This document shows positions 6,047-25,224 of a stretch of 52,800 nt of DNA, piece after piece. Position 1 is the first letter of the stretch, and each line of letters begins with the position of its first letter. A program made the position numbers and the translations under genes. The stretch is from the NCBI GenBank assembly GCA_903847415.1, contig CAINDR010000021.1:1-52800 (forward strand), read 5' to 3'. Under the pieces are notes generated by a model. The model was not told where the DNA came from. It saw only the letters and a list, made by a program, of their open reading frames with translations, and made no database searches. Origin of the DNA: Candidatus Falkowbacteria bacterium (GTDB lineage: Bacteria; Patescibacteriota; Patescibacteriia; Patescibacteriales; UBA12465).

Positions 6047-6358
6047 TTAAGTCATTTTAGTCGTTTCAATTTCAATTGCCCTAGTTATCATTTTAGTGTT
6101 AACCATTGACTCTGGACGAGCCACTACCTTTCCGGTTACTGACAAAACCCATTTCACACCAACCTCTTGGGCTAAATTTATTAATTGTTCATTATTTCGT
6201 GATGGATCTAGAGTTATTTGTGTAACACCATAACGATCACGCAAGTCAAGAAAAATTAAAGCACCGACATTACGACGACTGGCAACCCAACCGGTTAAGG
6301 TTATAATGTTACCAATAGATTTGTTCGTCAATTCTCCACAAGTATATGTTCTTAACAT
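6047..6358 (-). pseudogene. aspS: 5' fragment of aspartyl-tRNA synthetase (OB-fold anticodon-binding domain only)
   Basis: MLRTYTCGEL...LTGWVASRRNVGALIFLDLRDRYGVTQ is the bacterial AspRS N-terminus; ends after 103 aa and no catalytic domain follows. Confidence 0.85.
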
Positions 6359-21615: not shown

Positions 21616-21733
21616 TATTTAATAAATAGCTAATATTGGATAAATTTATTCTTTTGAAAGTCTTTTCTTTTAAATTGACAACAATAATTGTAGCTATTGA
21701 CAACACTTTGGATAATGCTTTACAATAGATAAT

Positions 21734-22783
21734 ATGAATAATAAAAACAGTAGAATTAAAGAGTTTATTTATAAACATGTATTTGAGCATCCGTCGGATA
21801 TTGCTCTGCTTGTTTCTAATGAATTTGGTTTTTCCCGCCAGAATGCTTTGCGTTATATTTCTAGAGAAGTAAGAGATGGGAAAATTATCAAAGTGGGCAG
21901 AACAAATTCAACCCGTTATTTTGAAGTTGGTGGCAAGAAGATTGAGTTTAATTGTGAGATAAATAAAAATCTTGCAGAAGATCAGGTTTGGTCAAAATAC
22001 ATTAAACCGATGACTTCTGGTTTTAATGATAATATCAAAAGAATTATTGCCTATGGTTTTACGGAAATTTATAACAATGCAATTGATCATTCAGGAGGAA
22101 CAATCATCAATACAAACGTTGAGATAAAAAATAATAACATAGAAATAAGTATTATTGATAACGGAATAGGGATATTTAAAAAAATTCACCAGGCACTCAA
22201 ATTAGATTCTGTTAGAGAGGCGATTCTTCATCTTTCTAAAGGAAAATTCACCACTGACCCTTCAAGGCATTCGGGGGAGGGAATATTCTTTACCTCAAGA
22301 ATATTCACGAAGTTTTCTATTCTTTCTGGTGACCTATTCTATAGTTTTGAGAATCAAGAATGGCTTCTATCTCATGAAAAAGAGGAAAGATTCGGTGACG
22401 GCACTTTAATCAAAATGGTTCTAAACCTCGACGCAACCCACACGTCAAAAGATATTATGGATAAATATGCCGACGTGGATTTTGATATTGGTTTTTGGAA
22501 AACTATTGTTGCGGTTTCATTGAGTTCCAGTCCCGATGACCCACATGTATCAAGGTCGCAAGCAAAAAGACTAATGATGGGATTGGATAAATTTAAAACT
22601 GTTGTCTTGGACTTCAAGAACGTATCTTCAGTTGGACAGGCCTTTGTTGATGAGATATTTAGAGTTTTTAGAAATAATTTTCCTGAAATTTCCATTGAGT
22701 ACATAAATGCCAATCAGGAAGTAGATGAAATGATTAAAAGAGGGTTGACACAAAATAAATTAAGTGGTAATTTTGGGACATAA
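21734..22783 (+). CDS. HTH + GHKL ATPase + STAS-like (DUF4325) protein
   Basis: TEIYNNAIDHS, DNGIGI, HSGEGIFF; C-terminal SRSQAKRL...VLDFKNV..VGQAFVDEIFRVF. Confidence 0.8.
   Translation: MNNKNSRIKEFIYKHVFEHPSDIALLVSNEFGFSRQNALRYISREVRDGKIIKVGRTNSTRYFEVGGKKIEFNCEINKNLAEDQVWSKYIKPMTSGFNDNIKRIIAYGFTEIYNNAIDHSGGTIINTNVEIKNNNIEISIIDNGIGIFKKIHQALKLDSVREAILHLSKGKFTTDPSRHSGEGIFFTSRIFTKFSILSGDLFYSFENQEWLLSHEKEERFGDGTLIKMVLNLDATHTSKDIMDKYADVDFDIGFWKTIVAVSLSSSPDDPHVSRSQAKRLMMGLDKFKTVVLDFKNVSSVGQAFVDEIFRVFRNNFPEISIEYINANQEVDEMIKRGLTQNKLSGNFGT
22745..22773 (+). promoter_or_regulatory. promoter for 22916 gene
   Basis: TTGACA-N17-TAATTT with extended TG. Confidence 0.5.
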
Positions 22784-22915: not shown

Positions 22916-23539
22916 ATGAGTAACGGAAAAGAAGAATCTGTTTTAGACGGAAAAGAAAAATTAACCGACGAGCAACTGGGTAAGTTGCATCGGAAATTCA
23001 GTGAAGTTATTAAAAGAATTAATGAGGGGGTAATAAATTATGAAGATGCCAAGGATGTCCTGCAATTCATTATTGTTGAGGGGAAATCTTCTGATTTTCT
23101 GAAAGTAATAAACAAGACCCATGAAATTCGTGAGATTGAATACCTCATCGATTGTAATGCTCGCCCTTTTATCCCACAAGGATCGACGGTGGAAGTACAC
23201 AAAAAAGGCGGAATGTGGAAATGGAATCCAAATATCTCCTTCTATCTGTCCAAAAAGCAGAAAAAAGGTGGATATTCCAAAGGGAATGATTTACGCAAAG
23301 AACTGGAAAATCAACCAGTGCTTAATGCTAATGTCTTGGATTACCTGCTTGCTCATCCAGAATTAATTCCAGAATCTTGGAAAAGCAAAATAACTTTTTT
23401 CTCGGGCACTATTTATCGCAATTCCGGCAGTAATCTCTTTGTTCGTTACCTCTACTGGCATGGCTTTCGCTGGGACTGGGGCAACGGCTGGCTCGGTTAC
23501 AATTTTAACAGCGATTACCAGGCCGCCCTCGCAAGTTAG
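22916..23539 (+). CDS. hypothetical protein with DGR variable-region-like C-terminus
   Basis: C-terminal VRYLYWHGFRWDWGNGWLGYNFNSDYQAALAS; 38 of the last 44 sense codons end in C/T. Confidence 0.7.
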   Translation: MSNGKEESVLDGKEKLTDEQLGKLHRKFSEVIKRINEGVINYEDAKDVLQFIIVEGKSSDFLKVINKTHEIREIEYLIDCNARPFIPQGSTVEVHKKGGMWKWNPNISFYLSKKQKKGGYSKGNDLRKELENQPVLNANVLDYLLAHPELIPESWKSKITFFSGTIYRNSGSNLFVRYLYWHGFRWDWGNGWLGYNFNSDYQAALAS

Positions 23540-23609
23540 TACTTAGTTCTTTGGCCCTTAGCTTTTTAGCCATCGGTCTTTTACCCTTTGTCCTTTGCGC
23601 TTTGTCCTC

Positions 23610-23650
23610 AAGCTCAGTTTACTTTTAGTAAATTGAGCTTATTTTTTATT
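23610..23650 (+). terminator. hairpin/intrinsic terminator
   Basis: AAGCTCAGTTTAC-TTTTA-GTAAATTGAGCTT-ATTTTTTATT. Confidence 0.7.
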
Positions 23651-23663
23651 CAAAAAACCTTTA

Positions 23664-23690
23664 TTAGCACTCTCTTGACTGGAGTGCTAA
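23664..23690 (+). promoter_or_regulatory. CIRCE operator (HrcA site)
   Basis: Exact TTAGCACTC-N9-GAGTGCTAA upstream of hrcA; -35 TTGACT lies in the spacer and TACAAT follows after 17 nt (23698-23703). Confidence 0.97.
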
Positions 23691-24423: not shown

Positions 24424-25224
24424 ATGGAAAAAAAACAAGAAAACAGTATTAAGCTGGCAGCTCATGGTTTTATCTTTAACTCTCAAAATGAGATCTTACT
24501 TCTAAAAGAAAAAGGAGAGGAATTGTGGCTTGGTTTATCGGGAATAATTTCTCAAAACCAGGAACCATTGGAAGTGATCAAGCAAAAAGCCTTGAAGGAG
24601 TTGGATTTAAAAGTAAACAATTTCAAGATTTTTGATACTGGCTTGGTTGGTGATTTGGTAGTTTTGCGTTTTATCGCTAATGATGTTTCTGGCGAGATCA
24701 AGCTAACTGGAAAATATCAGGAATTTGCTTGGTATAGTTTTACTGAAGCTAAAGAATTGAAAAATATTTGTCCGATTGTAAAGAAGAATTTAATTAAAAT
24801 GGAAGCAGAAATTGAGGGTGGTGCAGCGGATCAAAAGTATTTGCGGGCTCTTGCTGATTATCAAAATTTACTTCGTCAACATGCTGCTGATAAAACAAAC
24901 TTTATTAAATTTGCTCTCGCTAATTTTTTAGAAGAAATTTTGCCAGTCTATGATCACTTAAAACTCTCAGTTGCCAGTTTACCAGAAGCAGAAAAAAATA
25001 ATTCCTGGGTGGCAGGCGTCACTTATGTCTTGAAACAATTTAAGGATACCTTGGAGAGTCATGGGATTGAAGAGATCAAGACGGTTGGAGAAAAATTTGA
25101 CCATCACAATATGGAAGCAATGGAAGGTGAAGGTGAAGAGGTAATTAGGGAAGTGATGGCGGGTTATAAGTTAAACGGAAAATTAATTCGCGCCGCCAAG
25201 GTGGTGGTTGGCGAATCAAAATAA
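24424..25224 (+). CDS. grpE: GrpE nucleotide exchange factor with N-terminal Nudix-like domain
   Basis: C-terminal YLRALADYQN...GEKFDH...GYKLNGKLIRAAKVVV; N-terminal ~125 aa Nudix-like. Confidence 0.88.
   Translation: MEKKQENSIKLAAHGFIFNSQNEILLLKEKGEELWLGLSGIISQNQEPLEVIKQKALKELDLKVNNFKIFDTGLVGDLVVLRFIANDVSGEIKLTGKYQEFAWYSFTEAKELKNICPIVKKNLIKMEAEIEGGAADQKYLRALADYQNLLRQHAADKTNFIKFALANFLEEILPVYDHLKLSVASLPEAEKNNSWVAGVTYVLKQFKDTLESHGIEEIKTVGEKFDHHNMEAMEGEGEEVIREVMAGYKLNGKLIRAAKVVVGESK

Follow-up and report, generated by a model that had tools for sequence, protein, structure and literature searches.

A probable orphan target gene of a diversity-generating retroelement in a Candidatus Falkowbacteria genome

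Results

The window, by which we mean the whole 52,800-nt stretch analyzed (CAINDR010000021.1, positions 1 to 52,800), is contig C21 of a 928-kb Candidatus Falkowbacteria assembly (64 contigs, 95.6% complete). At 22916..23539 (+ strand) it carries a gene for a protein of 207 amino acids, a member of the target family of diversity-generating retroelements (DGRs) described below; searched against Pfam and NCBIfam, the protein passes the cut-off of no family. The gene lies between a ydjM-like gene and hrcA. Four of the seven congeners have nothing in this interval; in G002 and G003 it contains a member of the family in a more advanced state of decay, and in G006 a contig ends within it. The stop codon is followed by a pyrimidine tract (23540-23609), a 14-bp hairpin with a T run (23610..23640, + strand, z = -3.7) and then directly by the hrcA promoter region, the spacer typical of a DGR cassette being absent. 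The hairpin is terminator-like and possibly has the role of a post-VR stem-loop; a near-identical hairpin follows the G005 and G007 homologues as well as the paralogue on contig C60. Three further observations concern the surroundings. A perfect inverted repeat at 23664-23690, which we take to be of the CIRCE type, occurs upstream of hrcA, grpE, hsp20, and dnaK and is present in 8/8 genomes of the genus. The GrpE encoded at 24424-25224 carries a NUDIX-like domain at its N-terminus (Pfam NUDIX, E = 0.0014, short of the cut-off). A HATPase/STAS-like (DUF4325) gene at 21734-22783 is missing from the same place in the congeners and is skipped by a contig of sequencing run X6 (joint 21727-22745), and it reads as a variable insertion.

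Codon usage changes sharply toward the 3′ end of the gene. Third positions in the last 44 sense codons (from 23405) are C in 22, T in 16, G in 5 (four TGG and one CAG), and A in 1, against A 54, T 51, G 31, and C 27 in the first 163 codons (Fisher P = 5e-6 for A, P = 2.5e-6 for C/T). A first-pass annotation made from the sequence had counted 38 C/T endings, four TGG, and one A in these codons and set them against the rest of the gene; the counts are correct on recount, and the skew is real and survives a composition control. For this protein sequence and the codon usage of the genome, the expectation is 7.6 codons ending in A where one is observed (P(<=1) = 0.001), and 38 C/T endings were reached in 0 of 20,000 simulations. 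The gene ranks first for codon skew among 659 genome ORFs (at least 150 aa) and is the only one with at least 38 C/T-ending or at most one A-ending codon in its last 44. The GC-rich end that the same annotation placed just before the stop is GGCCGCCCTCGC at 23521-23532, with the TAG stop four bases downstream.

At E <= 0.001 the protein has 1053 homologues (of 1149 candidate proteins), the named ones belonging to Patescibacteria, some of them Ca. Falkowbacteria. Among 148 genomes from the taxonomic family of this organism, 54 have the protein family, as do all seven congeners. The search for related loci in genomes gave three loci only. In G011, G026, and G022 a template repeat (TR) of 118-123 nt lies about 340 nt behind the gene end. 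Mismatches between TR and variable region (VR) fall at TR adenines in 22/22 cases in G011, 12/12 in G026, 16/17 in G022, and 17/17 in G099. The cassettes of G011 and G026 are complete: behind the TR come an antisense gene resembling Avd (E = 1e-20 to NF033474, narrowly missing the cut-off) and then the reverse transcriptase (RT), so that the order in relatives is target-VR, spacer of about 340 nt, TR, antisense Avd, RT. Twelve further TR loci came from metagenomes, found with a pattern built for this template type, which therefore shows templates with adjacent targets and not the share of targets that have templates: a homologous target lies upstream in 11 (at the twelfth the contig breaks off), each TR/VR pair has 10-20 adenine mismatches, and on these short contigs an RT is seen in 5/12 and Avd in 9/12. 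Among 116 homologous proteins, the 11 positions that correspond to AAN codons of the template have a mean entropy of 3.09 bits vs 0.95 at the 28 remaining ones (P = 1e-6). The A-biased hypervariability among homologues that the first-pass annotation would expect of a DGR target does exist, and it peaks at template AAN codons. The fixed Trp scaffold that it described is equally borne out, W181, W186, W188, and W192 being near-invariant in the same homologues (0.14-0.66 bits). Some members of the family are damaged. A one-base insertion in the cassette-linked VR of G022:C12 (L035, around 6997) shifts the C-terminal frame relative to its template, and the family gene of G007:C4 (L036, around 6068-6182) is reduced to VR end, stop, and hairpin. 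Downstream of the target in G084:C9 (L114), the sequence past the hairpin resembles the start of the G022 cassette spacer and is perhaps a truncated cassette, although template, RT, and Avd were all sought there in vain.

The VR of the window gene occupies 23417..23534 (+ strand; 118 nt) and is colinear with the family templates, matching the TRs of three relatives without gaps at 67% identity (E = 1e-12 to 5e-12). Compared with 14 templates, it is changed at 12 of 27 conserved adenines and at 10 of 59 conserved non-adenine positions (P = 0.015). The closest templates, foreign ones, differ at 34/118 positions, 20 of them non-A, and therefore none belongs to this gene. Residues that are near-fixed in the family are replaced at four places (W163S, G172S, S184F, and P202Q), which fits either drift after the gene was last rewritten or a template that was itself somewhat different; the first of these, TCG (Ser163) at 23402..23404 (+ strand), lies a short way upstream of the VR, at a position that is Trp in at least 90% of homologues, and would be a sign of drift. 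The GC-rich 3′ end at 23522..23536 (+ strand) is common to cassette-linked targets, in which VR and TR part at this place (VR GCAAGT vs TR GCAACT), and is likely the equivalent of the IMH, a function suggested by the Bordetella model. Taken with the homologues, these alignments support 23417-23534 as a genuine VR of a described CPR class, UVR2.

AlphaFold2 predicts the whole protein with a mean pLDDT of 90.9 (91.5 for residues 70-207), as an N-terminal helical module (22967..23110, + strand; helices 18-36, 42-54, and 58-65) followed by an alpha/beta domain that ends in the strands of the VR (residues 72-207; 23129..23536, + strand). The sequence shows no apparent signal peptide or membrane helix. 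Foldseek returned no match at E <= 0.001 for the whole or the domain model, and the top nine matches of the domain model are of C-type-lectin (CLec) type at E = 0.36-1.3. The best match in a wider structural search was InvE (Z = 5.0, rmsd 3.1, 90 aligned), followed by Bd2740 (Z = 4.7) and others at 4.1 and lower, among them the DGR variable proteins 1yu0, 2y3c, and 5ioo (Z = 3.5, 3.2, and 3.0); these scores (Z 3-5) are below the reliable level of the tool, and none reaches Z 8. By title, or presumably, the top 50 matches listed are all C-type-lectin, Link, or FGE-type structures, and because they are so uniform residues 72-207 likely adopt a divergent CLec-like fold, the resemblance being weak but consistent. 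ESM Atlas matches were Patescibacteria clusters, an AAA+ fusion (TM 0.73), and DUF5701 (TM 0.55), under the bar for naming. The VR forms the ligand-binding face in known DGR targets, and by analogy that of the window protein would do the same.

We searched the assembly for the machinery that would serve this VR. The first-pass annotation had proposed a BLASTN search for a template differing almost only at A positions near an RT gene; blastn against the assembly found only the VR itself. The VR was likewise the only match in an adenine-tolerant scan with five sub-windows, with the TRs of relatives as queries, with 26 repeat pairs from the RT loci of relatives as queries, and in a scan for AAC density. 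No Avd was found in the assembly, nor any DGR-type RT, only two unrelated RTs. These two (on C58 and C15; L001 1291-2511 and L002 1273-2493) have the motif YxRVGDD; they were considered as DGR RTs and rejected for their 28-29% identity to the DGR RT, an ABC-like membrane gene as the downstream neighbor of each, and the lack of Avd. They match the DGR RT at E = 1e-12 and 3e-9, vs values down to 1e-173 for the DGR RTs of relatives. Because template, Avd, and DGR RT are all missing from the assembly, the gene is likely an orphan, an absence to be read against 64 contigs at 95.6% completeness. Repeats such as TR/VR pairs break assemblies.

The same state recurs within the genome and the family. 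Ranks two and three for codon skew are held by C19:1032-1652 (-) and C61:9639-10304 (+), which end in VRs matching two other template classes (up to 81% and 69%) that occur in cassettes of congeners; each VR is single-copy, and no template for either was found in the assembly. Two paralogues, C60:23443-23910 (-) and C20:35213-35596 (-), have a decayed VR signature, 7 and 11 of 44 codons ending in A. In G005 and G007 the C60 type is conserved, and C60 itself has retained the hairpin of the window gene. The N-terminal helical module is fused to a C19-type target domain in G156 (L163) and G163 (L170), which appears to be module swapping between target classes. No adjacent TR was seen at the 12 family-level loci read that have the N-terminal type of the window protein (G177 not re-aligned, G314 cut); the idea that this type marks a remote-only subfamily was rejected, a G055 match lying about 1.3 kb from a DGR RT.

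Across the taxonomic family, 42 family loci were examined and 32 scored, 10 without the anchor motif being dropped. An adjacent template accompanies 4 of the 32. Another 11 have a fresh signature (at most three A-ending codons) and no adjacent template, 8 of them, the window gene included, with about 1.5 kb read downstream and 3 near contig ends; the remaining 17 are decayed (5-14 A-ending codons). The template query matched 17 of the 148 genomes, of which 5 have a template, 9 have VRs only, and 3 have only the flank or another class, and in none of the 5 genomes with a UVR2-type template was a second, distant VR found. G140, a single contig that is 96% complete, has a homologue with a fresh VR but no second VR copy, DGR RT, or Avd, and is in the same orphan state as the window genome. 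DGR RTs are patchy in the taxonomic family, and four of the seven congeners have DGR-type RT sequence, some of it broken or partial.

Strains were compared through 8 of 22 sequencing runs, all as contigs at depth 3-14, at which rare variants drop out; X13-X20 (small shares, including three RNA runs) were left out, and X1 and X2, which are identical and stem from a study that is possibly the source of the assembly, are not independent. In X6, X7, and X11 (whole VR) and in X10 (from 23441) the sole VR change is a silent T>C at 23506, a return to the base of the template, and X5 has seven differences, this change being among the two listed. Contigs of five runs from four other studies thus hold one silent VR change among the differences that could be placed, whereas the 5′ part of the gene has, per 210 nt, 5 differences in X6 and 13 in X7. 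Two members of the protein's cluster, P0001 and P0122, carry 2 and 6 substitutions, all at residues 25-59 and none in the VR. The VR thus looks frozen, and likely is, being the same in strains from several studies.

A second allele exists at the same locus. X12 record 8, a contig of 1528 nt, has a different VR and no cassette, is about 92% alike in the 5′ part, and is identical at the hairpin; its 5′ part is seemingly also present in X10, which would then hold both allele types. P0002, encoded on a contig of equal length, is likely the protein of this allele. It differs from the window protein at 18/35 VR residues vs 29/172 elsewhere (P = 4e-5) and carries a 6-residue insertion; within the VR, 12/18 template-A codons differ vs 6/17 others (P = 0.06), and 18/65 sites differ in residues 70-134. 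The second allele can be explained by rewriting in trans after the gene had reached the locus or by replacement through recombination. A different VR at the same locus therefore leaves room for past rewriting at a distance.

Discussion

We think it probable that this UVR2-family gene is an orphan whose VR became fixed when the cassette was lost. A frozen leftover is likely because neither template nor enzyme was found and because strains from other samples have the same VR. Adenine-mutagenic retrohoming with an AAC-rich TR as its source would have rewritten an ancestor of the gene, leaving C/T at third positions together with fixed Trp, Leu, and Gly codons. The gene, its 3′ tract, and the hairpin would then have come to their present place, flanked by the ydjM-like gene and hrcA, with no cassette accompanying them, and the VR would since have stayed constant across strains while diverging from the family template at non-adenine sites. 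The product is predicted to be a small ligand-binding protein with a divergent CLec-like domain whose binding face is the VR.

The gene is of an ordinary, already described kind and represents no new kind of system. Patescibacteria UVR2 DGRs have architecture B3, TG-TR-(AVD)-RT (Wu et al. 2018, PMC5758913). The target and VR of one UVR2 entry there, t368 (LCQY01000001.1), resemble the window protein by eye, the shared pattern being NxLDYLLxHPELIP..WK...FFWGTxYR..G.L.VRYL.W....W.W...WL......PAA.LAS. UVR2 systems as given in that source and the relatives of the window gene share the cassette order and a C-terminal VR of about 120 nt, with Avd antisense in the relatives. In contrast, no TR, Avd, or RT follows the window gene or was found in its assembly, and 14 of the UVR2 rows in Wu et al. 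(2018) have one adjacent and no non-adjacent target each. Partial DGRs of DUSEL4 Nanoarchaeota, taken to be either fossil or remotely diversified (Paul et al. 2015, PMC4372165), are like the window gene in having a target, VR, and cis elements but no RT; their genomes have complete DGRs elsewhere, whereas the window assembly has none. Of the two options left for DUSEL4, the strain comparison of the window VR favors the fossil. Clade 2 of the DGRs in Roux et al. (2021, PMC8144416) is described as cellular, from Patescibacteria, with targets usually lacking transmembrane or known domains and with activity below average; the window family is likened to it by that description. Among the matches of the window domain are the CLec variable proteins Mtd, TvpA, and nanoarchaeal 5IOO, at low scores.

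The first-pass annotation had called the gene a probable remote target of a DGR. The part of this claim that makes it a DGR target in CPR stands, on homologues in cassettes, adenine-specific TR/VR differences, and AAN hypervariability. The part that has it still served by a cassette elsewhere does not; a working remote target is unsupported because no TR, Avd, or DGR-type RT was found and the VR is unchanged across studies. An active cognate TR-Avd-RT cassette could lie unassembled or unbinned in the same chromosome and still rewrite the gene, which we consider unlikely. The VR signature is no less fresh than that of cassette-linked targets (one A-ending codon vs two or three), the GC-rich 3′ end and hairpin are intact, DGR-type RT sequence persists in 4/7 congeners, broken or partial in some, and examples of non-adjacent targets exist (Wu et al. 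2018, PMC5758913, section 13). Against this, the genome has three VR classes, so that three missing templates would be required, and 0/5 family genomes with a UVR2-type TR show a second, distant VR match; the cassettes of congeners that were read belong to other TR classes, and a strict pattern of the fixed VR positions had no metagenome match (own or very near records possibly excluded). Remote targets in Treponema denticola resemble the window gene in lying far from any cassette. At a true remote target, every difference from a TR of that genome falls on an adenine (Wu et al. 2018, PMC5758913, section 13); unlike those of T. denticola, the window gene has no such TR in its assembly. An excess of nonsynonymous VR variation is a mark of DGR activity (Roux et al. 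2021, PMC8144416), and the window VR shows the opposite across strains, with the reservation that purifying selection can mask activity (section 10 of the same paper).

Rewriting may alternatively have been intermittent, compatible cassettes coming and going, rewriting the locus in trans and leaving an allele that became fixed once the cassette had left, which we regard as improbable, slightly more so than a cassette still at work. The two cassette-less alleles at one locus speak for it, differing mostly in the VR (18/35 vs 29/172), with 12 of the 18 VR changes at codons with a template A, as do the apparent presence of both allele types in X10 and the patchiness of DGR RTs in the taxonomic family. 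The enrichment at template-A codons is, however, not significant (12/18 vs 6/17, P = 0.06), and residues 70-134 differ too (18/65), so that paralogue recombination of the 3′ two-thirds of the gene fits equally. That the gene has no DGR history, its skew coming from amino-acid composition or a foreign GC-rich patch, can scarcely be right: Asn, Tyr, Asp, Phe, His, and Ser codons necessarily end in C/T (29/44 expected), but the skew is above composition-matched expectation, the 118-nt match to real TRs is ungapped, and the family resides in DGR cassettes, the TR/VR pairs of homologues refuting this reading.

For a probable orphan of this kind, DGR history is legible from codon endings alone. The screen of Roux et al. 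(2021, PMC8144416) needs a VR beside an RT and therefore does not count orphans; RT-anchored surveys miss many DGR products, the protein family being present in 54/148 genomes and a UVR2-type template found in 5. The divergent CLec-like fold is a testable prediction for UVR2, which Wu et al. (2018, PMC5758913) did not assign, leaving the fold of UVRs open; the literature searched, mostly papers accessible without subscription, held no structure or fold assignment for UVR2. Tentatively, and short of thinking it probable, we suggest that DGR cassettes in this Patescibacteria family may be short-lived gene factories that come and go, rewrite resident targets, possibly in trans, and leave behind fixed genes for CLec-like receptors, which then persist as a gene family like any other. 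If so, the genome would hold three frozen outputs of three templates together with two older, decayed copies, and the alleles at one locus would be a record of separate rounds of rewriting.
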